Notes under the pieces: model-generated
The model's database searches: none
What the model was told of the DNA's origin: nothing
Seen by the model: the letters and a program-made list of their open reading frames with translations, nothing else
Position numbers and translations under genes: made by a program
Shown here: positions 2,327 to 13,765 of the stretch, in pieces
Numbering within the stretch: position 1 is the first letter of the stretch
How the letters are laid out: every line of letters starts with the position of its first letter
From: Pseudomonadota bacterium
GTDB lineage: Bacteria; Desulfobacterota; Desulfobacteria; Desulfobacterales; Desulfolunaceae
Length of the DNA stretch: 64,000 nucleotides
Assembly: GCA_018818835.1 (NCBI GenBank)
Contig: JAHIRD010000141.1
Location: forward strand, 4,608-68,607
Direction of reading: 5' to 3'

Positions 2327-3202
2327 TTAAAAACGGCTTGTTACGTTGATTCCAAGACCTTTTTCATCTCCGGCCCTTATTTCGAGGCCCAGAGAGAATA
2401 ACTCCTTGATATTCATGGTCACCCCCACGAAATATCCAATGTTTTTAGACCATGTGATATCTTCTGTGTAATGAATGAACCCCTCATTAAAATAGAGGGT
2501 GCTGTAATTTCTGTTCGTATAATCCTCCGACCCGGTGATGCTGGCGACTTTTACTCCCATGTATGGAGAATAGGTTGGCATGTTTGCCGATAAACAGAAC
2601 GCCAGTTGAACCTCGTCAAGTGTGGATGCGTAGGATATTCCTTCTGACTTGAATCGGTCTTCTTCTATGGTTAATCGTCGGTAGGTGATATCCATTCCAA
2701 ATGTCACAGGGATATCACCTTTGTATTCTCCCCGGTGCATGACAAAACTTGCACCCATGCCATAATAAAGATCAGGCCCTGACTCGAAGGTATCATGGCT
2801 TGCATAGGACCTGCTGACGGTCCAGTCGCTGTAATCGAAATTAATGGTAGATGTGCTGGTCCCCAGAAGGGCGTAAATGATACTGCTGTCGTTGATGGGA
2901 GCACCGACTTTAAGCCCCATGGTATCCATGGTATTTTTTGATTTTCGTGTCTGGGGGTAATGGCGCTGCTCAGGAGGCGAAATGTTCGGATTGGTCCAGG
3001 GAAAACGCGTGATCTGTTCGGGAAGATCATTGACCTGCCTGTCAAAGGAAACCGTGGTGATGATTGATATTCCACCATCTTTCTGGAACGGACCTGGATT
3101 CCACAATGCCGGATCACCGATATTACCAACAGGAGCGGCACATACGGCAATGGGCAGTAAGATACAGAAGCAGATCAATAGCATGTAGGGTGTACGGTTC
3201 AT
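2327..3202 (-). CDS. Outer-membrane beta-barrel protein, possibly MOMP-like
   Basis: ATG at 3202 with a GGAGAAAAGGA RBS. Signal peptide LLICFCILLPIAVCA. Alternating-polarity strands and a C-terminal ...NVTSRF with terminal Phe, the typical BAM signal. The mature N-terminus PVGNIGDPALW weakly recalls the LPVGNPAEPSL start of chlamydial/Legionella major outer-membrane proteins (from memory). Confidence 0.6.
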   Translation of the reverse strand: MNRTPYMLLICFCILLPIAVCAAPVGNIGDPALWNPGPFQKDGGISIITTVSFDRQVNDLPEQITRFPWTNPNISPPEQRHYPQTRKSKNTMDTMGLKVGAPINDSSIIYALLGTSTSTINFDYSDWTVSRSYASHDTFESGPDLYYGMGASFVMHRGEYKGDIPVTFGMDITYRRLTIEEDRFKSEGISYASTLDEVQLAFCLSANMPTYSPYMGVKVASITGSEDYTNRNYSTLYFNEGFIHYTEDITWSKNIGYFVGVTMNIKELFSLGLEIRAGDEKGLGINVTSRF

Positions 3203-3279
3203 TCCTTTTCTCCGAATAAAACCTCGAACAAATCAGGACAAGCCAGGCAATGGACCGTTATTCCCACAGTTTATCATGA

Positions 3280-3317
3280 TGAAAAAATATCATGGGGGCG
3301 GGTTTTACTCCGCCCCA
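3280..3317 (-). terminator. Rho-independent terminator after the 166-aa secreted-protein gene
   Basis: Minus sense reads GGGGCGGAGTAAAACCCGCCCCC followed by ATGATATTTTTTCATC. It lies about 100 nt downstream of the stop at 3414. Confidence 0.5.
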
Positions 3318-3413
3318 TGCATCATGGTGTGCTTTAAATATACTGGGATTTTATAACGGACTGTTTTCTGACGAAAAAAAGGAGGTAAAAGAGTGGCTGG
3401 TATAACGGCCCCA

Positions 3414-3914
3414 TTAGTTGGTCGTTATTCGCACGTTTCCGCTGATCTGGGCATGATAGTCACGGATGCTGATACTCCCGAAACTGTTTCCTTCTCCTGG
3501 TTCCGTTCCCACGGTGATGGATCCGATGTCAAAATGATCGACGTCAATGGTGGCGCCGTTTAAGCTGACATTGATTCCTGTCATCATGGTATGGGAAAAA
3601 AGATCTTGCTCGGTTGTAACAGAAATGGATACGGGTTCTTGAAGGTTGATAACGCCCTGGAATGAAACGTCATTGACGCTTAAATACCCAGCAGTGCCAT
3701 CGGTCCCGTCCGAATCTCCGTAAACCATGCTTCCGATTTCCATGTTAAGGGCAATTTGATCTGCTGCTGTAATTGCAATTCCCGCCTGTGCTGTTGCTTC
3801 GCGCATTCCCGTCTCAGTAAGTGCAGACAAGACCGCATACCCTTTTGAAGGAGTGATGGCCATACCCATAGAAACACATAATACAATTGTCATTAGGAAA
3901 CTAAGCTTTTTCAT
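3414..3914 (-). CDS. Small secreted protein (166 aa) with an N-terminal TAQAG box; paralog family member a
   Basis: The best start is ATG at 3914 (MKKLSFLMTIVLCVSMGMA) with a GGAGA RBS; the longer track ORF to 4040 runs into the riboswitch array. After the signal peptide comes LTETGMREATAQAGIAI, a box shared with ORFs 10042..10746, 10793..11599 and 11812..12642. Confidence 0.7.
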   Translation of the reverse strand: MKKLSFLMTIVLCVSMGMAITPSKGYAVLSALTETGMREATAQAGIAITAADQIALNMEIGSMVYGDSDGTDGTAGYLSVNDVSFQGVINLQEPVSISVTTEQDLFSHTMMTGINVSLNGATIDVDHFDIGSITVGTEPGEGNSFGSISIRDYHAQISGNVRITTN

Positions 3915-3944
3915 TGAGATCTCCTTATCTGTCAACGTCCTACA

Positions 3945-4006
3945 GGCAACCCGGCTGTCCATGGAGGACCCGTGGCTTTCCGTCCCAGGATTGCTCCTGG
4001 TTTGGC
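3945..4006 (-). promoter_or_regulatory. c-di-GMP-I (GEMM-I)-like riboswitch aptamer, unit 1 (closest to the gene)
   Basis: Minus sense: GCCAAACCAGGAGCAAUCCUGGGACGGAAAGCCACGGGUCCUCCAUGGACAGCCGGGUUGCC. The blocks are CAAACC, a 6-bp stem with a GCAA (GNRA) loop, GGGACGGAAAGCC, a second hairpin, and GGGUUGCC. This order matches the GEMM-I aptamer architecture as I recall it. Confidence 0.8.
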
Positions 4007-4010
4007 ATAG

Positions 4011-4092
4011 GAGGCGGCTCGGCTGTCCATGAAATTGCAATGCAAAAAAATGGACCCGTGGCTTTCCGTCCCAGGGTTACCCCTGGTTTGGC
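4011..4092 (-). promoter_or_regulatory. GEMM-I-like aptamer, unit 2
   Basis: Minus sense: GCCAAACCAGGGGUAACCCUGGGACGGAAAGCCACGGGUCCAU[19-nt loop]AUGGACAGCCGAGCCGCCUC. GUAA tetraloop. The 3' end is the variant CCGAGCCGCC. Confidence 0.65.
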
Positions 4093-4119
4093 CTTGTACG
4101 TCTTCTGTTAACTGTTACA

Positions 4120-4197
4120 GGTAACCCGGCTATCCATTTTATCATAAAGAAAAAATGGACCCGTGGCTTTCCGTCCCAGGGTTACCCCTGGTTTGGC
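4120..4197 (-). promoter_or_regulatory. GEMM-I-like aptamer, unit 3
   Basis: Minus sense: GCCAAACCAGGGGUAACCCUGGGACGGAAAGCCACGGGUCCAU[AU-rich loop]AUGGACAGCCGGGUUACC, except that plus-strand tatcc at 4131-4135 gives GGAUAGCC in place of GGACAGCC. Nearly identical to unit 5. Confidence 0.8.
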
Positions 4198-4200
4198 TCT

Positions 4201-4270
4201 GGAGGCGGCCCGGCTGTCCACACAATTATGGACCCGTGGCTTTCTGTCCCAGGGTTACCCCTGGTTTAGC
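4201..4270 (-). promoter_or_regulatory. GEMM-I-like aptamer, unit 4
   Basis: Minus sense: GCUAAACCAGGGGUAACCCUGGGACAGAAAGCCACGGGUCCAUAAUUGUGUGGACAGCCGGGCCGCCUCC. Two point variants are present (CUAAACC, GACAGAAAGCC). It resembles unit 2. Confidence 0.65.
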
Positions 4271-4277
4271 AATAAAT

Positions 4278-4355
4278 GGTAACCCGGCTGTCCATTTTAT
4301 CATAAAGAAAAAATGGACCCGTGGCTTTCCGTCCCAGGGTTACCCCTGGTTTGGC
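4278..4355 (-). promoter_or_regulatory. GEMM-I-like aptamer, unit 5 (5'-most in the RNA)
   Basis: Same blocks as unit 3; 3' end GGACAGCCGGGUUACC. Confidence 0.8.
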
Positions 4356-4515
4356 GCGCTTGTCACCCTTTTACCTCCACGCCCACCCTTTTTTTACGAA
4401 AAGGGCAGGCATGGTCTGTCCCGACTTGTCAAAGAACATGAGCTCACCCCAACCATGCAGATAACCTAAGACGGATATCGACATGATACAGGGAAAACTT
4501 AACGATAATAATTGA

Positions 4516-6021
4516 TCAGTTCGATAAAGTGACAGTGATCCTGAAAAATTCCGGATCAGGATTATCCAGCACACTGATCAGATGAAGTTTATTTGAACCA
4601 TCAAAAACAAGGGGTATCCCATCAATAATGCTTTTAATCTTTAAATTAATTTCGTGGTCGTTAATTACCAGAATCACATTTTTCCCCTTTTCGGCCAGAT
4701 ACGCTATATTCATCCCATCCGGGCTGAACAGGGGATTGAAAATCCGTGAATAGCCACGTCCTTCAATCCCGTCAGTAACCAGAAAGATATTTTTTTTATC
4801 GAGAACTTCATAAAACATATGGTTTGAGTCATTACTGAAACATGGGCTTTTTACATCCATATATTTTTTACCGGGTTTACCGTCTAAAATCACCATGTTA
4901 TTTTTTTCAGTTTTGACTGTATAGGCAACGTGTTTTGAATCCGGGCTGAACACCGGAGTACCCACAAATGGATAAAATCCTTGTTCCTGCCCGTCACAAA
5001 TCACGGTAAACTTATTCTTTTTAATTCCGATATGGGCAAAACGATTGGAATCAGGACTGAAAATATATGTACCGAGAAGATCATATGCGGAACCTTCTTT
5101 CCTATCCATAACAAGTACCCATTTGTTTCCTTTTTTTGCAGGGTAGGCCATATGTTTTGAGTCGGGGCTGAATACGGGAAGGCCCACAGTAGGATATTTT
5201 TCATGTTCCTTACCATCTTCGACGATGAAGATTTTAAACTTTTTTTGGGCTGCATAGGTAAGTCTGGTGGAATCAGGGCTCCATGTAATGGTCAGAACAT
5301 TCTCATAGGGTTTCCCCGTGAATCCGTCTTTGAATAGGAACCATGCCCCGTCTTTGAGTACAGCGCCGGCCAGATGGTTTGAATCCGGACTGAAAATAAG
5401 CTCTTTGATTCCCAAAAATGTGCCGATCTTCCGGGAATTTTTGATAACAAACCATTCCTTACCTTTTACGGCGATATAAGCCAGGTGTTTTGAATCCGGG
5501 CTGAACAAGGGCCGGCTTTTAATTTGATCAAACGGTTCGCCTGCCCTGTGATTTAACACGACAAAGAGTTCATTTCCCATCTTGGCCTTATACGCAAACT
5601 GTTTGCCGTCCGGGCTGAAAATCAGGTCGGATACCCCATCGAAATCCGGTCCTTTTTTCCCATCGATCACCACACATTGCTTGGAACCTTGAACCGCGAT
5701 ATAAGCAAGCCGGTTTGTTTTCGGGCTGAAAAAAGGGGTCCCCTTGGCGATACCATCAAAATCCGGGCCTTTCTTCGTGTCCAGATGAACAGCCATTTTC
5801 TGGTTAACTCGCGTTGCATATGCCACATGCTCTGCATCAGGCTTGTTCGTAGTCAGTCCGAACAGTTTGGACTCTTTGGGGAGTTTTCCTAAAGAGGTTT
5901 TGGTGATTGATACAGTCGGTTTGTCGCTTTTTTGACCTGCAAAGACAGCCAGGGTATGTGAAAAAAAACCGATCAGGCAAATAGAAAACAATGTCATACT
6001 TATTTTTTGAAACAAAACCAT
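4516..6021 (-). CDS. Periplasmic PD40 (TolB-type WD40-like) beta-propeller repeat protein
   Basis: ATG at 6021 and signal peptide LFSICLIGFFSHTLAVFA. About ten repeats of roughly 45 aa carry FSPD(S/G)(K/N)xxAY (FSPDGKQFAY, FSPDSKHLAY, FSPDSNHLAG, FSPDSKHMAY, FSPDGMNIAY). Confidence 0.8.
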   Translation of the reverse strand: MVLFQKISMTLFSICLIGFFSHTLAVFAGQKSDKPTVSITKTSLGKLPKESKLFGLTTNKPDAEHVAYATRVNQKMAVHLDTKKGPDFDGIAKGTPFFSPKTNRLAYIAVQGSKQCVVIDGKKGPDFDGVSDLIFSPDGKQFAYKAKMGNELFVVLNHRAGEPFDQIKSRPLFSPDSKHLAYIAVKGKEWFVIKNSRKIGTFLGIKELIFSPDSNHLAGAVLKDGAWFLFKDGFTGKPYENVLTITWSPDSTRLTYAAQKKFKIFIVEDGKEHEKYPTVGLPVFSPDSKHMAYPAKKGNKWVLVMDRKEGSAYDLLGTYIFSPDSNRFAHIGIKKNKFTVICDGQEQGFYPFVGTPVFSPDSKHVAYTVKTEKNNMVILDGKPGKKYMDVKSPCFSNDSNHMFYEVLDKKNIFLVTDGIEGRGYSRIFNPLFSPDGMNIAYLAEKGKNVILVINDHEINLKIKSIIDGIPLVFDGSNKLHLISVLDNPDPEFFRITVTLSN

Positions 6022-6081
6022 GTTAAAACCTTTTCTTATTTACAAAATTATATGGTTGCATGATATCTCTGCACGGTCCAA

Positions 6082-7965
6082 TTAGTTGTATTCCGCTGAT
6101 AAACGCTCAAGATATCTGTTGAACTCTTCTTCTTCCGTTTCCTCGGTTGTATTCAATTTTGATTCATCCGATTCCGGATGTTTTTTCTTTTTAAAGGGAT
6201 TTAATTTATGAAACAGCTCTTTGATTTTATGGATGCTGTGCTTCATCATCATCTGTTGGTGGTGAAGCATCTCCATCTGGACTTCCAGGGGCATGGTCAC
6301 GCCGAATGTGACAAGATAGATGCTTAAATCCTGCTCGTAATCAAGGCCGGCAAAGGGATTTCCCATCTGGGTGAAATCCAGGGAGTTCATATTGGTGCTT
6401 TCGTTATTATAAATGGTGAAATGATTGCTCCACAGATATCCCAGGCCCAGGTCAAAATCGATGCCGTTGGGGAGTTTGAGGCCAATGCCCGCTCCCACGA
6501 AATCAGCGTCCGGGATAAAATACAGGGCATCGAACTGATCATGCTGCAAAGATGTGGGGCGTTTTTCGTACCCGCAGCGCAAGGTCAGTTTATCGTTGAC
6601 CTCGAATTCCATGGCAGTACTCCAGTGCCAGGTGTCTTTCATGTTTCTGTCCACCACAAAGGTATAGGCCCCATGCTGGTAGCCCAGCATTTTTGCAATA
6701 CGAAGAATCTGGATCCTTTGGTCAAACACAAATCGGTCTTCTTTGCCGGCTGCTGCCCAGTTGGCCCAATGAACATCAAAAAGAAATTTAATCCTGTCCA
6801 AGGGGCGGACCATAATCCCTGTTTGAACCCGTGCAGGAAAAATCTGAGTGGCTGTAACGGTTCCGCTCTGATAGGGCACGGCCTTGATGGGAAGGTCCAG
6901 CATGCCTGCCGATTCCATGGTCATGGGGGTCGAGGCATTCCAGGCCACCTGTTTTTGGAACTGCTTGCTGTATTCCCACATGTATTTTCCGGAAATTTCT
7001 CCTACGGATTCACTTTGATAGCAGAACCCGTAGGAAAACCAAGTCCGAGGGCGCCATAAAAGACCCAGGTTGTATGAGGGAACAAAATCGTCTCTAAGGT
7101 CCATGGTAATGCTGATGTTGTGCTCATAAGGCCCAAGGCCGCCTCCCAACCAAGGGGGCGGGAGGGTTTGCTCTGACACCACGGGAATTTCAAGATCCTT
7201 GGTAGCATCCCCGATAACACGGGTCATGGCCACGAGTTCGTTGGGTGTCCGTACATCCAATTCAAGGCCCATGGCTCGCTGGGCCATACCAATGGAAACA
7301 CCCAGGAAAAGCTGGTCAGATACAGCAAAACTGGCTGAAGGTGCTGCATAGATCAAATGTTGTGCATACAGGGACTTGCATCCGAACTGGAAGGGATCAC
7401 CCTCATCCCGGTGGGCCATTCCGCCAGCAAAGGGGGCATAGTTGGCGTATGCAAAGGTCCACTTGCTGTCCGGCTTTCGTGAGGCCAAGCCCAGGTTCGG
7501 ACCTGCTAAAAAATCAATGGGGCCGTAGAAGGGCAGGTACATACGTCCTGATGAGTTTGTACCCGATTTCCCGTTCAATGGGTCAGGCCCGCCGTGGTCG
7601 CTGTTGGGATCGGTTGCGGAATCGTAATATTCAGGATATTTATTCTCATCCGGCCCCCAGTAACCGTTCATGAACCCTTCAAAATCATCAGCGGTCTTAA
7701 ACCGTCCTGTTCGTTTGATGATGGGCAGGGCAAATCCGTTGCTGAAGGTCTTGCCTTCATCTAATAAAGACAATCCCGCAGGATTGTAATGAACGGACAT
7801 CAGGCCGGGCGGGTCGGCTGTGCAGGTATTGGCCAGGGACACGGCACGGGCATCCACGGCAAGCTGCTCATTAAAAACCGCATGGCTCAAGGAAGGCATC
7901 AGGAATATACAGATAGGTATGGTGAACAACCCGCTGTATTTTATTATGAGACAGAGAACGCGCAA
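6082..7965 (-). CDS. FadL/TodX-family outer-membrane channel with an unusual charged C-terminal tail
   Basis: After the signal peptide: DARAVSLANTCTADPPGLMSVHYNPAGLSLL, a FadL-type N-terminal motif. I prefer the TTG start at 7965 (AGGAGA, then 6 nt, then TTG, giving M-RVLCLIIKYSGLFTIPICIFLMPSLSHA). The track ORF start at 8046 would overlap the upstream gene by 52 nt. Confidence 0.7.
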   Translation of the reverse strand: MRVLCLIIKYSGLFTIPICIFLMPSLSHAVFNEQLAVDARAVSLANTCTADPPGLMSVHYNPAGLSLLDEGKTFSNGFALPIIKRTGRFKTADDFEGFMNGYWGPDENKYPEYYDSATDPNSDHGGPDPLNGKSGTNSSGRMYLPFYGPIDFLAGPNLGLASRKPDSKWTFAYANYAPFAGGMAHRDEGDPFQFGCKSLYAQHLIYAAPSASFAVSDQLFLGVSIGMAQRAMGLELDVRTPNELVAMTRVIGDATKDLEIPVVSEQTLPPPWLGGGLGPYEHNISITMDLRDDFVPSYNLGLLWRPRTWFSYGFCYQSESVGEISGKYMWEYSKQFQKQVAWNASTPMTMESAGMLDLPIKAVPYQSGTVTATQIFPARVQTGIMVRPLDRIKFLFDVHWANWAAAGKEDRFVFDQRIQILRIAKMLGYQHGAYTFVVDRNMKDTWHWSTAMEFEVNDKLTLRCGYEKRPTSLQHDQFDALYFIPDADFVGAGIGLKLPNGIDFDLGLGYLWSNHFTIYNNESTNMNSLDFTQMGNPFAGLDYEQDLSIYLVTFGVTMPLEVQMEMLHHQQMMMKHSIHKIKELFHKLNPFKKKKHPESDESKLNTTEETEEEEFNRYLERLSAEYN

Positions 7966-7993
7966 AAAAAATCTCCTGTTCCTGAACCTGCCA

Positions 7994-9100
7994 TTACAAT
8001 TCGTAGGCAAAAGGGACTCTAACCTGAAGGGAAAAATCAGAGTCATTATTGGTCAAACCGATTCCCAGCCGGACATTCACAGAACGTTTCGGTGTAATGT
8101 TCCAGCCTGTTCCTATGCTGAAAACCGAGGAAATAGATCCTTCGGAACGTGTTTCCCGTGGCCCTTCCGGTCTGACCCAGTCATAGGATGTTTTGGACTG
8201 GTATGAATACTGATAGCTCAAGGTCAGGGATGCTTTATAGGACAGGGAATAGCCGATACCCATGGAAAAGGAATAAACTTCTCCAGGCTTGACACCGGCG
8301 AGGAATATTCCGGCTTCACCTTGAGTCCCGGTTTTGGAATTCAAATGGGTGGTTTCAATCCCATGCTCCACATTTATACCACCAAAAGCAACCAGGGGGT
8401 CGATGGATTTGCTGACATTGCAGCCCATGCCGATGGAATAGGTTCCGTTGCCCGTCGACATTTCTTTGGTGCTGTCAATTTTATAGGGGCTTCTTCCTGT
8501 TGGGCATGTTAATGACCCCGAGACAATTATTGATGGCAGGTCCTTACCGCTTTTCACGGGTTGGAATTGGAGACCGAACGACGTATCTCCAAAATCTGAA
8601 ACATTCTTTGCTGACGTATTGGTCTGGCTGTTGTATTTGTAAACAAAGGGGATATTGCTGTTTACTGTCAGGTTTTCTTTGACAGGATACTCGATGAGAA
8701 ATGAATTGGTCACCGTGTGGTATGCGTTGTGTTTCACGGCCACAATACTATCTGCATTGGCGGTGACGTTATCATAAGAATCACCGGCATAGCGAATGCT
8801 GTATTCAAAACCCAGTTTCCCAGGCTTCATGAGGGTATAATCACGGCCTGCGGCTGAAAGAATCGCGTCATCTTCAGAACTTTTTTCTTCCTGGGTGGTT
8901 TCAAGACGCCGCCTAATATCATTTTCTTCTTCCATTTTCGTGAGCTTGTCTTCAAGTCGTTTGATCTGCTCCTTGAATTGCTCCATATCGCTTGAAGGCT
9001 GCGCCTGCACGTTCACCACAGGGGGGGCTTCGGCATAAACCGCAGAGGTGAGAGTTATCATGGCTAAAATGATCAGTAGTTTTGTAAAATGTTTTATCAC
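7994..9100 (-). CDS. Outer-membrane beta-barrel with an N-terminal coiled coil (FapF-like architecture)
   Basis: GTG at 9100 follows GGAGG at 8-nt spacing and gives the signal peptide IKHFTKLLIILAMITLTSAVYA. Alternative starts are 9127 and 9139. A heptad-rich segment MEQFKEQIKRLEDKLTKMEEENDIRRRLETTQEEK is followed by about 270 aa of amphipathic strands ending ...QVRVPFAYEL. Confidence 0.6.
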   Translation of the reverse strand: MIKHFTKLLIILAMITLTSAVYAEAPPVVNVQAQPSSDMEQFKEQIKRLEDKLTKMEEENDIRRRLETTQEEKSSEDDAILSAAGRDYTLMKPGKLGFEYSIRYAGDSYDNVTANADSIVAVKHNAYHTVTNSFLIEYPVKENLTVNSNIPFVYKYNSQTNTSAKNVSDFGDTSFGLQFQPVKSGKDLPSIIVSGSLTCPTGRSPYKIDSTKEMSTGNGTYSIGMGCNVSKSIDPLVAFGGINVEHGIETTHLNSKTGTQGEAGIFLAGVKPGEVYSFSMGIGYSLSYKASLTLSYQYSYQSKTSYDWVRPEGPRETRSEGSISSVFSIGTGWNITPKRSVNVRLGIGLTNNDSDFSLQVRVPFAYEL

Positions 9101-9147
9101 CTGGTTTCCCTCCGGACTCGGAACCATCTGGTCAGACAAAAATGGTT

Positions 9148-9912
9148 CTATTGTTTATACCGGTTAGTCTTTGTGTCTGTCGTAGTTCCATTATTATGAA
9201 AATCAGCTTCCCATTCCTGGGGAAGGTCAAATGGTCTGTCTACATCGAACATCAGAGTTTTTTCCATATCCTTATCTATAAACCGGAGATCCTGTTCTTT
9301 GAGGCTTAGGCAGGACAGGGCGTTCCCGTATTTCGGGTAGATTCTGAAAAGGATATTGTTATACCACATGCCCATAAACTGGTCCACCGGGTAACTCCCG
9401 TTTCCCCGCCAGGGATCGGCTACGAACACATGGCCTTTGTGAATGGCTTTCAAGACCACAAAATGACGGTAGCCGAACAGCTCTATGGGAACAATGCATG
9501 GCCAGAGTTCAGGATTTTTCAGGTCGGAAAGCTCCGCGTTGTAGCCACCGGCCTTGTACCCCAGAACATCCACGAACTTCTGCATGTCCCAGAGGGAAAA
9601 AGCTCTGAGTTTTTTAATTTGTTCTTTGTCCCCATACTCTAGAAGACCCTTGATAATTTGTTTTTCAGTAAAATTTTCTCCCAGGTAGTTGTTGAGGATG
9701 GTCCCTAAAGCCGCTGATCCGCAGCTGTAATCGTAATTTTGCTTCATCAGGCAGGCCTGGGAACTTTCGGAGAGAGGGATGACTTCAGGGTAGATGCGCA
9801 AGGCTTCATTAGTCCCCATGGCAATATTCAATTCACCTTTGGGGGATGAATGGAAGGGATGAAATCCTGAGATCAGTCCAGCAAAAATGATAAATGCAAA
9901 AACCACATGCAT
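9148..9912 (-). CDS. Secreted C39-family (bacteriocin-processing type) cysteine peptidase domain protein
   Basis: ATG at 9912 with an N-terminal hydrophobic signal. Q-x5-C motif in KQNYDYSCGSAALGTIL, His in YRHFVVLKAI, and Asp in HVFVADPW. This is the complete C39 Gln/Cys/His/Asp arrangement. Confidence 0.8.
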   Translation of the reverse strand: MHVVFAFIIFAGLISGFHPFHSSPKGELNIAMGTNEALRIYPEVIPLSESSQACLMKQNYDYSCGSAALGTILNNYLGENFTEKQIIKGLLEYGDKEQIKKLRAFSLWDMQKFVDVLGYKAGGYNAELSDLKNPELWPCIVPIELFGYRHFVVLKAIHKGHVFVADPWRGNGSYPVDQFMGMWYNNILFRIYPKYGNALSCLSLKEQDLRFIDKDMEKTLMFDVDRPFDLPQEWEADFHNNGTTTDTKTNRYKQ

Positions 9913-10041
9913 ATTATAACCCTCTATCCATCGCGCAGGAGAAATTTCCTGCCCACTGTTCCCAAAGTATTGAAACAGTACATATCAAAAAATATCGGAA
10001 AAGGCACTGTATTATTGCTGTGATATCCAGGTTCACGGCGG

Positions 10042-10746
10042 TCATGGAGAATCCCACCACGTTCCAATTGAACCCGATTTAATCTCAGTCTCATCATACC
10101 CTGCAACGACCTTGAGGCCGGGCGTTGATCCACTCTGGCCCAGGTCTAATATAAAAAAAAGACCCATGTTACTGGTTGGGCTTCCATCGGAATTGAAATT
10201 AAATGTGGTCTGCCCCAGGTTGGCTTTATCATATACGGTCGGGCTTCCACCACTTAAGGCGATGGCAGGATTGTATGTGCCGGAGTAGCTGAGCATGTTG
10301 GCGCTGATCGTCCCCTGGAGCCGATTGGATCCTATGACGATGCGTTCGAGAACAGGATTTGTGGCAGAGGTGTCATCAAAGTCGGCAATAAAGACCAAAC
10401 CGTCAATGGTCAGGGGGGTATCCGTAGATGTATCCCCCAAAATCACATTGTTCCATTGAATATCATAGTTTGCTGCTGCTCCGCTCCTTAAGCTGTCGAT
10501 GGTCGCGTAGGTTTCCATATGAATATCCAGAAAAAGTCGGGCCGTACTGTTGCTCATGGTGAAATTGGTTAAACCGGCCTGGCCGGTCGATGATTTGAGC
10601 GCGTTTTCGTCCATGGCTTTGAGCTCGGCATGGAGCGACGATGGTAAGAATATAAAACAGAAAATAACAAGCACCATTAACTGGTAAACCAGTTTATCTC
10701 TGAACAAAAGTCCATCGAATCGGTGTATGAAAATTACTCTGTTCAT
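10042..10746 (-). CDS. Secreted protein (234 aa) with an N-terminal TGQAG box; paralog family member b
   Basis: ATG at 10746. Signal LMVLVIFCFIFLPSSLHA, then ELKAMDENALKSSTGQAGLTNF. Ser/Thr/Gly/Asn-rich and beta-rich, with no Cys after the signal peptide. Confidence 0.7.
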   Translation of the reverse strand: MNRVIFIHRFDGLLFRDKLVYQLMVLVIFCFIFLPSSLHAELKAMDENALKSSTGQAGLTNFTMSNSTARLFLDIHMETYATIDSLRSGAAANYDIQWNNVILGDTSTDTPLTIDGLVFIADFDDTSATNPVLERIVIGSNRLQGTISANMLSYSGTYNPAIALSGGSPTVYDKANLGQTTFNFNSDGSPTSNMGLFFILDLGQSGSTPGLKVVAGYDETEIKSGSIGTWWDSP

Positions 10747-10792
10747 TATGCTGTATTCCTGCCTTACCCTATTTATTCGTTATGATAACGGC

Positions 10793-11599
10793 TTAAGGAT
10801 TTCCTAACCCACGGCCGGGGATCTCTATGTAAAGTTTTTGAACATTCATGCCGTCAATTGCAAATAGACCCAAGTCTGTCGTGCCTGAGTCAGGAGCATT
10901 GACCTGTATATTATCGATATGGAAGGAACCCGACATGGGCATGTTCAAGCTGATATGTGCATTAGATTCAGCTGAAATATCGATGGTTGCAGGCTTGTTA
11001 TTCGTAAGATCACCCACTTGAATATCAAAGGTGATACCGGAAAAGTTCAACGCGTCTGTCGTGTTGTACTTATAAGAGAGAGTGTCTATTGTGATTTTGT
11101 GGCCTAGTTCGTAGTCGATACCCATACTGCCGACATGGGGCCCAATGAACAGGTGAAAAGATGACAGGACCATGGATTCAGCGGTTAGAGAACCGATATT
11201 TGTTCCGGAAAAATCGATGGCGTCAATGGTCATATCCGTGGATATTGAAATATCAGGACTTTGGCTAAAAAACATGATTTGATCATTGTAAGTGCCCACA
11301 TCAATGCTCAAATGGTTGATTTTGCCGTCATCGTCCATGTCAGATGAACCTGTGTTTGTGTGGGTAAGAATATGGATGTCGTTGAAGCTTATATATTCAG
11401 TTTCATCATCGGGATTGTAAAAGGTCATGTTGTCACTGTGGACTTCTGTGATCATGTCACCAATGGCGATATCAATACCGGCCTGGGCCATGGTTTTTTT
11501 CATCTGTTGGTTGGACAGTGCTTCAAGGCAGCATCCGGTGTCCGGGATGATGCTTATGATGCTCAACACGATGAATAAGTATGTTAAGGCCTGGGTCAC
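10793..11599 (-). CDS. Secreted protein (268 aa) with an N-terminal MAQAG box; paralog family member c
   Basis: GTG at 11599 after AAGGA. Hydrophobic N-terminus LTYLFIVLSIISII, then LEALSNQQMKKTMAQAGIDIAIGD. Asp/Ser/Thr/Ile-rich. Confidence 0.65.
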   Translation of the reverse strand: MTQALTYLFIVLSIISIIPDTGCCLEALSNQQMKKTMAQAGIDIAIGDMITEVHSDNMTFYNPDDETEYISFNDIHILTHTNTGSSDMDDDGKINHLSIDVGTYNDQIMFFSQSPDISISTDMTIDAIDFSGTNIGSLTAESMVLSSFHLFIGPHVGSMGIDYELGHKITIDTLSYKYNTTDALNFSGITFDIQVGDLTNNKPATIDISAESNAHISLNMPMSGSFHIDNIQVNAPDSGTTDLGLFAIDGMNVQKLYIEIPGRGLGNP

Positions 11600-11641
11600 A
11601 GAGTTGTCCTTTAAAACATAATGTTTTGTATGTCACTCCAA

Positions 11642-11708
11642 GGCAACCCGACCATCCGGTGGGCACCGGACTCGAAGCTTTCCGTCCCCGGATTGCTCCG
11701 GGTTTGGC
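11642..11708 (-). promoter_or_regulatory. GEMM-I-like riboswitch aptamer in the leader of the 10793..11599 operon
   Basis: Minus sense: GCCAAACCCGGAGCAAUCCGGGGACGGAAAGCUUCGAGUCCGGUGCCCACCGGAUGGUCGGGUUGCC. Stem 1 is CCCGGA/UCCGGG with a GCAA loop (compensatory changes relative to the other copies). It ends 42 nt upstream of the start codon. Confidence 0.8.
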
Positions 11709-11732
11709 GTTTCTTGAAACATTTGATCCTAT

Positions 11733-11776
11733 GAAAAAGCCCCTTCCGGGAAACATCTATGTTCAGGGAAGGGGCT
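11733..11776 (-). terminator. Rho-independent terminator after the 276-aa gene
   Basis: Minus sense: AGCCCCTTCC-loop-GGAAGGGGCT (10-bp stem) followed by TTTTTCAT. It starts about 35 nt downstream of the stop at 11812. Confidence 0.65.
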
Positions 11777-11811
11777 CCACGTAAATCACTTATGAGGATT
11801 GTGCTAATTCA

Positions 11812-12642
11812 TTAGTGAGCAGCGATTTCAACAATTCCACCAAGGATAGCCATTGCGCTCTGGCCTTTGGAAATTTTGATGAAGTTTGCATTATTGTTGA
11901 TACCGGTTCCTGCAACACCAACTGAATATTCATCAGCTGTGGTGGAGATAAGAAGGGTCGGAAGACCAATCACAACACCAGTGACAGCCTGAGTGGTACC
12001 AATCGCAGTTGCTGTAGGATCAGCTGCAAGAGTAGCAACACCGGAACCTAAAAGAACGCCGGCTTCAGAGATGTCACGAACATCAGTATCTGCAGAAATA
12101 GTAGCAAGTGCAGTTGCTTTTGCAGTACCGAGAGCAATAAGGTTGGCCATAGAAGGATCGCCAGCATAGGTAGCAGCTGCTGTGGCAACAAGACCTGATT
12201 GAGTCAATACGGTAGTCAGGAGTGCACCGGCATCAGCATTAATGATGGCATTATTGGCATTAACTCCAGCTGCAAGGATTGAACAAGCTCCTACGTCAAT
12301 GTTAAGAGCAGCAGCTTCAACCCAAGTACCCTTGTTGACAACACCAGCTGCAGCAAGGAAGTCAGCTTCGTAATCAGTCTGTGAAGTCATGGCTAGGTAT
12401 TCTTTCACAACGTGTTTGTCACTGATAACGATTGAGCCTTCAACACCGTTTGTTCCGTCTTCATCCGTATAAGTGGTTGAACCTGTGAATTGTTCGATCA
12501 CAACGTTATCCAAAGTGATGCTCACACCAGCCTGACCAGTGGCGGATTTCATGTTGGCGTCAGTCATTGAAGTCAAAGCAAAGACTGAAGGAGCGATTGC
12601 GAGAGATGCACCAAGAACTAAACTCATAGCTAATTTTTTCAT
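11812..12642 (-). CDS. Secreted Ala/Gly/Thr/Val-rich protein (276 aa) with an N-terminal TGQAG box; paralog family member d
   Basis: ATG at 12642 with a GGAGAAGAAA RBS (the track start 12654 is a TTG). Signal MKKLAMSLVLGASLAIAPSVFA, then LTSMTDANMKSATGQAGVSITLDN. The rest is low-complexity A/G/T/V sequence. It has its own terminator and its own riboswitch-like leader. Confidence 0.75.
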   Translation of the reverse strand: MKKLAMSLVLGASLAIAPSVFALTSMTDANMKSATGQAGVSITLDNVVIEQFTGSTTYTDEDGTNGVEGSIVISDKHVVKEYLAMTSQTDYEADFLAAAGVVNKGTWVEAAALNIDVGACSILAAGVNANNAIINADAGALLTTVLTQSGLVATAAATYAGDPSMANLIALGTAKATALATISADTDVRDISEAGVLLGSGVATLAADPTATAIGTTQAVTGVVIGLPTLLISTTADEYSVGVAGTGINNNANFIKISKGQSAMAILGGIVEIAAH

Positions 12643-12686
12643 TTTCTTCTCCAAAGTAAAATTAAAAATTAATTTAATTTACCAGA

Positions 12687-12762
12687 GGCAACCCGACCAT
12701 CCCCATCGCAAGCATGATGCGGACTCGTTGGCTTTCCGTCCCTGGATTACTCCAGGTTTGGT
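12687..12762 (-). promoter_or_regulatory. GEMM-I-like riboswitch aptamer, variant with A at the selectivity position
   Basis: Minus sense: AUACCAAACCUGGAGUAAUCCAGGGACGGAAAGCCAACGAGUCC...GGAUGGUCGGGUUGCC. Stem 1 is CCUGGA/UCCAGG with a GUAA loop. The base two nt 5' of CAAACC is A here; it is G in the other six copies. Confidence 0.75.
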
Positions 12763-13765
12763 ATTTTCTTTGGCGGTTTTGCTTGCGCACCCTTGCGCAA
12801 GACAAATTGATTTGTAAAAACGATTTACCATTAAACAGATTCGTTTAACGTTCTTAAGAATTAGCCTCCTTTCCATATAAAAAGAAATGTCCCCACATTC
12901 CAGTTAATATTCATATCCCTAATGAGTCTTTTTAAAGATCTTAAGGGACACGCGACGACCTAACTAAAGCCGCCGGAAACAACATGTATGTAAATTTTAG
13001 AAAGAGCTGATTTATGCCTACCTCGTAAACCGGTTGGCTGTGCGGCCCATGTGTTCTCGTGTGTGGGCCTTGTCTTCGCATTCAATCATCGGATGAACCA
13101 TTCAAAAATTGAAAGACCGTAACAATGTTTTATAAAACGTACGAAGATAATCCTTATGTACGAAAGTAGTAGGGTCGAATGATGATTGTATATCCGCTGC
13201 CCTTTTGCTTTGTCAATTAAAAATTTTCGATTTTCTTAAAAATTAAATTGTACGAGTATAAAAAAAAGTACTTGAAACGATTGACAATAGTCATTGTGAA
13301 CGCTGTTCATCAGTTGTGCCAAATGTACTAAATAGGTCCATTCGGTTGTACAGCTGTTAAAATATCGAAATTTCAGGCATTTGAATTATAGCCCCGAAAA
13401 ATGATTTCGCGAAATCCTGCGAAAATATGGGCTTTTACCGAACAATGTTCATGTACTGGAATGGGATTTTGAGGAAAAAATATGATTTCTATTGAGTTTT
13501 TAAGGAACTTGCGCGTTTGGTAAGGTACCTTTTTGATAAATCGGGGGTCACCATGGGCGTTTGTCAGGTGAAAGTAATTCAATTATCCGATTTTAAAGGT
13601 ATTTTAACTGAATATATGTAAAAAAGTTCTTAGCTTTATTAAGTATTTTACCCAAGGAGAGAAACATAGTTTCAATAAATGGACATAGATCTTAATGACG
13701 ATCATGATACTCAGACCCTATGTTTTTAAGGGCTCGCAGGCGTTTAATTGAAGGATGGCATGGGA

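Follow-up and report, generated by a model that had tools for sequence, protein, structure and literature searches.

Five tandem class-I c-di-GMP aptamer units in the leader of a small filA-like gene, and similar arrays in related leaders of Desulfobacterota

How many sensors for one ligand can be stacked in the leader of a single gene, and how might such a stack act on that gene? The question is raised by a stretch of 64,000 nt (hereafter the window; contig JAHIRD010000141.1, positions 4,608 to 68,607) from a Pseudomonadota bacterium of the Desulfobacterota family Desulfolunaceae. Read on the minus strand, positions 4355-3945 of the window comprise five consecutive class-I cyclic di-GMP (c-di-GMP; GEMM-I) aptamer units, termed U5 to U1 in 5′-3′ direction, at the positions and with all of the sequence and helix blocks that the initial annotation of this DNA had listed for them (Table 1). 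They precede a gene for a small FilA-like protein with a DUF6160 domain. We regard it as probable that all five units are functional class-I c-di-GMP aptamers within a leader of ~550 nt that carries a translational platform for this filA-like gene.

A whole-window Rfam scan at gathering cut-offs reported U5 (64.9 bits) and U3 (64.1 bits) as RF01051 and U2 (62.7 bits) as RF03167, two models of clan CL00126 with gathering scores of 35 and 59, respectively. U1 matched RF03167 in a permissive Rfam scan of the region (53.3 bits, E 1e-11), and U4 did so when scanned alone (54.7 bits, E 5e-13); U4 had dropped out of the region scan because Rfam models include flanks, so that its match overlaps those of its neighbours. 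Over all five units the Rfam matches range from 53 to 65 bits (E 1e-10 to 1e-14). Five significant RF01051 matches had been expected; all five units do match models of the clan, but only three pass the gathering cut-offs in the whole-window scan. The RF01051 scores of U1 and U4 are masked by clan competition, and a curated gathering score is strictly reached by three units and very probably by all five. R1, a covariance model without flanks that we derived from the seven window copies, scored 102, 84.3, 100.5, 91.6 and 81.4 bits for U5 to U1. In region scans the plus strand yielded no Rfam match nor anything comparable, and the motif GGGAC[AG]GAAAGC occurs seven times on the minus strand of the 64-kb window and not once on the plus strand. 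Tandem Repeats Finder reported nothing for 3850-4520, because the unit periods vary with the length of the P3 loop. With our unit boundaries, on whose placement these lengths depend, the linkers measure 7, 6, 27 and 6 nt from 5′ to 3′ along the array and not 4, 27, 3 and 7 nt as previously given.

Table 1. Positions of the leader elements, the downstream gene and its neighbours in the window, in the order of transcription for the leader
Feature	Position	Strand	Remarks
Candidate sigma-28 (FliA)-type promoter	4475-4502	minus	-35 TTAAGTTT (4502-4495), -10 GTCGATAT (4482-4475)
Leader element UUCUUUGACAAGUCGGGAC	4418-4436	minus	invariant columns in alignments A6 and A7
5′ hairpin	4377-4414	minus	16 bp and 6-nt loop in the minimum-free-energy fold; U-tract absent 3′ of hairpin
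Motif GGAGGUAAAAGGGUGACAAGCGC	4356-4378	minus	invariant in alignments A2, A6 and A7; directly 5′ of first aptamer
Aptamer U5	4355-4278 (78 nt)	minus	type A, ends GGGUUACC; G20 at 4355; P2 loop GUAA
Aptamer U4	4270-4204 (67 nt)	minus	type B, ends GGGCCGCC; compensatory C>U / G>A change in 2-bp helix; P2 loop GUAA
Second CCUCC, candidate anti-Shine-Dalgarno	4201-4205	minus	last two C of U4 plus linker; invariant in A7
Aptamer U3	4197-4120 (78 nt)	minus	type A; 99% identical to U5 in window genome; P2 loop GUAA
27-nt linker UGUAACAGUUAACAGAAGACGUACAAG	4093-4119	minus	conserved, decayed copy of platform after U1; alignments A2 and A7
Aptamer U2	4092-4013 (80 nt)	minus	type B, ends CCGAGCCGCC; P2 loop GUAA
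CCUCCU	4009-4014	minus	terminal CC of U2 plus linker; 2 nt before G20 of U1; complementary to Shine-Dalgarno
Aptamer U1	4006-3945 (62 nt)	minus	type A; P2 loop GCAA; P3 loop short in window genome
Platform hairpin CUGU-N9-ACAG	3929-3945	minus	begins at terminal C of U1
Shine-Dalgarno AAGGAG	3921-3926	minus	6 nt before AUG; invariant in A7
Regulated gene, DUF6160	3414-3914	minus	166-aa signal-peptide protein (FilA-like fibre subunit); Pfam PF19657
Terminator-like hairpin	3295-3316	minus	~100 nt past stop codon; consensus scan only
DUF6160 gene, larger upstream paralogue	12642-11812	minus	behind c-di-GMP-I element
DUF6160 gene, larger upstream paralogue	11599-10793	minus	behind c-di-GMP-I element
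234-aa open reading frame		minus	within locus 2327-12654
C39 peptidase, FilB/FapD-like	9912-9148	minus	within locus 2327-12654
FapF/FilC-like	9139-7994	minus	within locus 2327-12654
FadL/FilD-like	8046-6082	minus	within locus 2327-12654
PD40/TolB-like	6021-4516	minus	within locus 2327-12654
Outer-membrane-protein-barrel-like	3202-2327	minus	within locus 2327-12654

The fold of the units is supported by covariation. For P2 this had already been noted among the seven copies of the window and it was borne out: 97.7% of the cells were paired and four pairs had changed on both sides, compared with 20-53% in slid controls in which the partner columns were shifted by 1-3. In 84 units from 18 sources 96.5% of the cells were paired, with 9 pairs and 70 cells compensatory and 19-54% in the slid controls, in an alignment that was fitted to the model and hence favours the structure. 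P2 is closed by a GNRA tetraloop in every unit. Alignment to the Rfam consensus shows in all five units the G that precedes the 2-bp helix (G20), an A behind GACGG (A47) and CC at the end. In the Vc2 riboswitch, G20 and C92 form pairs with both c-di-GMP guanines, and A47 makes a hydrogen bond from its backbone phosphate to the ligand's 2′-hydroxyl (PMC5888326); which of the two terminal C's equals C92 was taken from the RF03167 structure line. The hallmark of the GGC variant (RF03167), a G after GACGC at position 47, which we derived by comparing the Rfam consensus lines of RF03167 and RF01051 (the match line is blank there), was absent from the array, where the five units read GACGGAAAG or GACAGAAAG with an A. 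Since A stands at position 47 in all units, the RF03167 matches reflect the closeness of the clan models and not a variant pocket. Rfam matches, covariation, intact pocket bases and the conservation in orthologous loci described below together support the c-di-GMP-I identity in the gene sense that had been proposed.

Is the array peculiar to this genome? We traced homologues of the 166-aa protein to their contigs and searched these with R1. Together with the GTDB scan described below, this gave about 20 other Desulfobacterota loci (L numbers) in which a small DUF6160 gene is preceded by an array, the unit number ranging from four to six or more. Five units were present in the isolate Desulfatiferula olefinivorans JCM 14469 (L001) and in the metagenomic loci L007, L008, L011, L134, L137 and L138, at least six in L136, where the contig begins inside the array, and four upstream of the orthologous gene in L004. 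Further loci showed 4 (L009), 3 (L006) and 2 units (L012) with chimeric junction units, which points to assembly collapse or recombination, and six contigs end inside the array (L002, L003, L005, L010, L013, L135). Most of the 65 homologues found by the search lie on contigs of ~0.9-1.3 kb, a length that fits assemblies breaking at a repeat array just upstream of the gene. The first of the five units of L137 (209-358) has an insertion of ~80 nt in the distal P3 loop, its core being intact. Public gene calls opposite the arrays of L007 (1905-2447, 180 aa) and L011 (1946-2455, 169 aa) are annotated as hypothetical proteins and are almost certainly repeat artefacts.

A scan of GTDB with a three-motif DNA pattern, followed by R1, gave at least 120 loci among the matches listed, which are a sample and not a census, and most of which had no R1 match. 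Among these listed matches were five units in a Desulfobotulus metagenome-assembled genome (MAG; L043) and four units in MAGs of Smithellaceae, Syntrophaceae, Smithella, Thermodesulfobacteriota and Desulfobacteraceae. Wherever checked, the gene downstream encoded a DUF6160 protein of 159-168 aa (the L043 copy stops after 101 aa, where the retrieved locus ends), with DUF6160 scores of 28-43 bits behind the arrays of L043, L061, L110, L123 and L105. A protein-pattern scan of metagenome contigs with a narrower alignment gave five loci. In the four-unit arrays of Syntrophales (L061 1037-1109, L077 2301-2373, L110 3604-3676) the second unit from the 5′ end has A20 and the other three have G, so that one leader may combine c-di-GMP-type and cGAMP-type pockets, judging from this base. 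Also among the listed matches, a Clostridia MAG contained five closely spaced c-di-GMP-I units, which have GAAA tetraloops and are separated by 0-10 nt (L060, 2022-2437), before a gene for a 672-aa protein with three SLH (S-layer-homology) domains, as well as a second similar array on another contig (L038, 6681-7209); this five-unit array is convergent. Tight triplets were listed for many Lachnospiraceae and Oscillospiraceae MAGs.

In the literature, c-di-GMP-I is the class with most tandem arrangements: Sherlock et al. (2022), in RefSeq 80 and environmental data, counted 347 doublets and 12 triplets and none larger, hits with overlapping coordinates having been discarded (PMC9481103), and the triple riboswitch Bc3-5 of Bacillus thuringiensis studied by Zhou et al. 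(2016) consists of three complete terminator-type riboswitches (PMC4759541). A 2025 survey mentions triplets at most in the passages searched. For c-di-GMP-I arrays of more than three units, and for the regulation of DUF6160 or FilA, nothing relevant was found in the literature searched. The literature thus agrees with the initial statement that described natural tandems stop at two or three (PMC9481103, PMC4759541); the further statement that five aptamers would be extreme holds in so far as the array exceeds every tandem of this class in the literature searched, but the arrangement is not unique, as relatives carry from four up to six or more units and five are present in a Clostridia MAG. 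At gathering cut-offs Rfam reports three units in arrays of five or six (window, L001, L136, L138) because matches that include flanks overlap each other, and it labels some array units as GGC or UAU variants despite canonical pocket bases. This undercount probably explains why such arrays have gone unreported.

Whole-leader alignments show that the units are orthologous by position, and they fall into two types. Type B units (U2, U4) end in GCCGCCUCC, of the form GCCG(A/G)GCCGCC, followed by UCC, and are always followed by a type A unit (U5, U3, U1), which ends in GGGUU(A/G)CC. The array had been read as [5-4]-[3-2]-1, a duplicated double aptamer with near-identical units 5 and 3 as well as 4 and 2. 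The likeness of U5 and U3 is real and specific to the window genome, but U4 and U2 are merely 76% identical overall, and the 27-nt linker CUGUAACAGUUAACAGAAGACG after U3 is homologous to the platform CUGUAGGACGUUGACAGAAAGGAG after U1. Because of this homology, and because A always follows B, the repeated module is more likely [B-A-platform] in the layout 5-[4-3]-[2-1], as far as can be judged from the sequence. In L043 the B-A pair was duplicated independently. The U-A pair that results from the double change in U4 is kept at the U4 position in all orthologues, including the isolate genome, and the identity of units is 0.962 for the same position across genomes versus 0.907 for different positions within one genome. 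By these comparisons the array is old and predates the compared lineages; it did not arise by a local expansion in recent time. In nine genomes, identity amounts to 94-99% for the cores of U5 to U1, compared with 61% for the third positions of codons that encode conserved residues of the gene product and 55-72% for the distal P3 loops. Cores this similar beside synonymous sites at ~61% imply that all five units are maintained by selection.

What might the aptamers control? A single platform close to the Shine-Dalgarno (SD) sequence, composed of CCUCCU, a hairpin and the SD, follows the five aptamers, as in a shared-platform layout. CCUCCU lies between the last two units in 18 of the 18 arrays examined, including those of distant lineages with otherwise different linkers, and duplexes with the SD region at -7.3 to -11.6 kcal/mol (RNAduplex). 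The second CCUCC, a feature of the window clade, pairs with the SD as well, namely in the RNAalifold consensus (columns 293-296/579-582) and with a probability of 0.21 in the ensemble of the window leader. The loop of the platform hairpin presents AGGAC (3941-3937), a mimic of the SD that is complementary to the linker UCCU, and AGGACGUUGACAGA is invariant in the window clade. Across lineages a hairpin is kept at this position and ends 1-3 nt before the SD, with differing sequences (CUGU-AGU-ACAG, CUGUGU-N8-ACACAG, CUGUGAGAU-UUG-AUCUUACAG and AGAAAGC-N3-GCUUUCU).

Folds from the end of U2 to the AUG gave a CCUCCU-SD pairing probability of 0.25-0.99 in all 15 leaders and of at least 0.85 in 10 of them; upon addition of 27 nt of coding sequence the pairing of the SD shifts to a downstream UUUCCUU in most leaders of the window clade. 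This element is part of the opening 21 nt of the gene, AUGAAAAAGCUUAGUUUCCU(U/A), which hardly vary at the nucleotide level, and it is able to pair with the SD. The same stretch of the window (3914-3894, AUGAAAAAGCUUAGUUUCCUU) is identical in nucleotides, synonymous sites included, in a distant Thermodesulfobacteriota MAG (L123, 904-926). With the last module alone plus 27 nt of coding sequence, the SD was at most 20% unpaired in 15 of 15 leaders, its partner being CCUCCU or the conserved UUUCCUU (codons 5-7). For the window module the sequestered conformer was computed at -34.3 kcal/mol, compared with -27.8 kcal/mol for a P1/mimic conformer in which UCCU pairs with AGGA. Two other candidate helices were rejected: one enclosing U2-U1 (ACGUACA with UGUAGGACGU), in which L007 and L008 differ without compensation, and an RNAalifold P1 for U2 (CGUA with UAUG), which would use up G20 of U1 and which a 1-nt deletion disrupts in the same two loci. 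In these models control is likely translational and exerted by a single platform at the ribosome-binding site.

The 5′ part of the leader is conserved as well. In nine orthologous upstream regions (alignment A6) we found a conserved TCAAGTTT-N12-GCCGATNA with invariant AGT.T and CGAT, which resembles the FliA consensus, TAAAGTTT-N11-GCCGATAA. From this motif, transcription is predicted to start near 4468, which would give a 5′ untranslated region of about 554 nt. Such a sigma-28-like promoter is unexpected for a presumed adhesive-fibre gene. The 5′ hairpin has seven pairs with compensatory changes across orthologues (columns 77-114). GACAAGC of the leader element UUCUUUGACAAGUCGGGAC was paired by RNAalifold with codons 3-6 of the gene, a pairing without covariation, and the motif GGAGGUAAAAGGGUGACAAGCGC contains GGAGG, complementary to the CCUCC elements, with a related motif in the Syntrophales arrays. 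A short upstream open reading frame (ORF; GUG at 4365 after GGAGG) was rejected, as L001 and L137 have GCG. The sequence preceding the 5′ hairpin resembles the 3′ half of an aptamer and may be what is left of a sixth unit, but this is supported by no model match.

We propose that CCUCCU, and also the second CCUCC after U4, would pair with the SD and that the whole array would work through one translational platform. CCUCCU sits at the position of a P1 strand for both adjoining aptamers. Without ligand the ribosome-binding site would be sequestered; with c-di-GMP bound on both sides, CCUCCU would be held by the aptamers or captured by the AGGAC mimic as P1 of U1, and the ribosome-binding site would be freed. 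Several ligands would then be needed before translation starts, which might result in a steep ON response at high c-di-GMP. The contribution of U5 to U3 could lie in a second clamp on the SD partner, in cooperative folding, in the stability of the RNA or in the buffering of ligand. Because the default state looks OFF, the ligand most plausibly turns expression ON; provided that control is translational, we lean towards this sign. A stronger version, in which P1-less aptamers bind cooperatively, pairs of them clamp the CCUCC elements and the gene is ON only at four to five ligands with a Hill coefficient well above 2, we consider unlikely.

Several other explanations need to be weighed against this proposal. 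The repeats could be no RNA sensors at all but protein-coding repeats, repetitive extragenic palindromic elements or an array akin to clustered regularly interspaced short palindromic repeats. Mechanical ORFs do overlap the region (3414-4040 minus, 4155-4469 plus), and public gene callers put ORFs of 169-180 aa opposite orthologous arrays, but the covariance-model matches are strand-specific with E down to 1e-14, the stem substitutions are compensatory and lack a codon pattern, and the P3 loop lengths differ by non-multiples of three, which leaves this explanation with a practically negligible probability. Five independent complete riboswitches, each with a terminator or anti-terminator in the manner of the pseudo-cooperative Bc3-5 tandem, would be in line with the documented use of stacked complete c-di-GMP-I riboswitches for a more digital response (PMC4759541; PMC9481103). 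However, linkers of 6-7 nt leave no room for platforms, so that the units are packed too tightly for terminators of their own. No individual platforms were found beside the linkers of 7, 6 and 6 nt, a consensus scan detected no terminator-like site (hairpin plus U-tract) within 4355-3945, and a small hairpin fits only into the 27-nt linker, which has no U-run; we thus hold such independence for highly improbable. In a further alternative, the last one or two aptamers alone would regulate the gene and the upstream units would be neutrally drifting duplicates or assembly artefacts. The evident platform is indeed flanked by U2 and U1 alone, U5 and U3 are 99% identical in the window MAG, and several assemblies collapse or break inside arrays. 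Yet cores conserved at 94-99% from U5 to U1, beside synonymous sites at ~61% and P3 loops at about 55-72%, compensatory changes in P3 stems, and position signatures such as the U-A pair of U4 that recur in independent assemblies, including an isolate genome, all speak for maintenance of every unit and make this explanation improbable.

More weight has to be given to doubts about the output and its sign. The main output might not be translation initiation but a ligand-dependent RNA stability, through Rho or RNase protection, or c-di-GMP buffering. This would suit U5 to U3 with no recognisable platform of their own, a long untranslated leader, AU-rich linkers between compact domains and a putative major fibre subunit whose mRNA could be abundant; the universal conservation of CCUCCU and of the SD-adjacent hairpin indicates control at the ribosome-binding site instead, and we regard a different main output as rather unlikely. 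In the opposite sign, c-di-GMP would stabilise the CCUCCU:SD helix at the P1 position of U2, enclosing U1, and turn the gene OFF. Both single riboswitches of the window start P1 at the terminal C, and it is the terminal C of U2 that starts the CCUCCU:SD helix; the promoter resembles the sigma-28 type of motility genes, and L043, L123 and L105 have no SD mimic. On the other side, local folding sequesters the SD without ligand already, leaving an OFF ligand little to do, the invariant SD mimic of the window clade is placed to compete with the SD, and characterised c-di-GMP riboswitches of surface adhesins such as Bc3-5 are ON switches (PMC4759541). Overall an OFF switch appears somewhat unlikely; if control is translational it is quite conceivable, although not what we expect.

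A number of observations count against our proposal of five functional aptamers with a translational ON platform. The array units have no canonical P1 formed by 5′ and 3′ flanks, their flanks being linkers of 6-7 nt shared with the neighbouring unit, and P1 pairs of RF03167 are flagged as non-canonical or absent; a P1 is not part of the RF01051 model. Both single riboswitches of the window do have a P1, which begins at the terminal C (UUCAAG/CUUGGA and CCAAAG/CUCUGG). U1 and U4 (53.3 and 54.7 bits) are below the gathering score of 59 of their best-matching clan model. Modelling of SD accessibility in 12 full-length leaders, with and without simulated ligand, gave inconsistent results and was set aside: the SD of the window leader is 96% free with or without the simulated ligand, and the ligand model by itself produces part of any rise in accessibility because blocking the terminal C's of the aptamers removes part of CCUCCU. 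The SD mimic AGGAC is confined to the window clade. The place of P1 is taken by the CCUCCU:SD helix in L043, L123 and L105, for which the usual rule that ligand stabilises P1 predicts OFF, and a sigma-28-like promoter would be in keeping with a motility-phase gene under repression by c-di-GMP. The CCUCC/SD pairing is without covariation because the elements are invariant. Finally, the copy numbers derive from short-read assemblies, which often break or collapse at the repeats (L002, L003, L005, L006, L009, L010, L012, L013).

Set beside known systems, the array represents a new architecture within a known riboswitch class and not a class of its own. With RF01051 and Vc2 the units share the 2-bp helix, the GNRA-capped P2, the bulged P3, the joining sequences CAAACC, GGGACG.AAAGCC and AGCCGGG..CC, the pocket bases G20, A47 and C92, and a position in the gene sense in the 5′ untranslated region of a surface-structure gene. 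They differ from Vc2 in that P1 from the flanks is replaced by a local 3′ hairpin or by the CCUCCU:SD helix, starting at the terminal C, and in that they are joined head to tail by 6-7 nt. Like Bc3-5, the array combines several c-di-GMP-I sensors in the leader of a single gene for surface or adhesion functions, from which a more switch-like response would be expected; unlike the transcriptional Bc3-5 riboswitches with their own terminators, it has five aptamers (at least six in relatives) and a single platform at the ribosome-binding site. It extends the same tandem trend that Sherlock et al. surveyed without anything above a triplet. Tandem riboswitches in general are a textbook RNA-only route to switch-like responses, and the tandem glycine riboswitch combines two aptamers, one platform and defined contacts between the aptamers. 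Aptamers for the same ligand with a single platform are shared with the latter, and a two-aptamer module appears to be the repeated evolutionary unit here; the glycine riboswitch is another RNA class, and five aptamers are present here rather than two.

The downstream gene matches PF19657 with 36.8 bits (cut-off 27, E 4.9e-09). Its protein is 100% identical to a Proteobacteria MAG protein, and an exact-sequence look-up gave no match. The terminator-like hairpin behind the gene fits a monocistronic transcript, as far as a consensus scan can indicate. Judging from its gene content, the surrounding locus appears to encode a fibre system of the Fil/Fap type, in which three subunit genes are controlled by riboswitches. 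The neighbours match NCBIfam FilB, FilC and FilD of the putative Fil pilus (FilA-F) of Acinetobacter and resemble the Fap amyloid system, with scores far below the curated cut-offs, which marks them as distant relatives; NCBIfam FilA is matched weakly and by one DUF6160 paralogue alone (26 vs 220). Riboswitch control of Fil or Fap systems was not found in the literature, where the direct check was limited to DUF6160 and yielded a single paper on an unrelated subject.

One single c-di-GMP-I element precedes each of the larger DUF6160 paralogues (Rfam 11639-11718 and 12684-12772, minus strand). The riboswitch at 12687-12762 (minus; probable ATG at 12642) has A and not G at the G20 position (AUACCAAACC), and a G20-to-A change has been reported for variants selective for c-AMP-GMP (3′3′-cGAMP) (PMC9481103). 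CCAAAG (12773-12768), which forms the 5′ strand of its P1, is a perfect complement of the SD-overlapping CUUUGG (12656-12651), which by analogy suggests the same logic of SD control as in the array. A strong terminator-like hairpin (GGAGCCCCUUCC...GGAAGGGGCUUUUU, 11735-11778, minus) lies between the first DUF6160 gene and the riboswitch at 11642-11710, and less than 25 nt remain for a promoter.

In summary, documented tandems stop at three complete units, and the array adds a conserved natural design of five to six aptamers with a single platform, which in several orders of Desulfobacterota goes together with a single gene family (small DUF6160/FilA-like fibre subunits). Such arrays are probably undercounted in databases and are sometimes annotated as hypothetical proteins. 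The array raises the questions of whether c-di-GMP aptamers can function without P1, whether neighbouring units cooperate and how steep the response of an RNA-only sensor can become, and it connects c-di-GMP with a so far uncharacterised fibre system of sulfate reducers that resembles Fil/Fap. If the stronger, cooperative version were true, the array would be a novel type of multi-site c-di-GMP device, which together with a sigma-28-type promoter would confine expression to the transition from motile to attached cells, and five binding sites on an abundant mRNA could additionally buffer free c-di-GMP.

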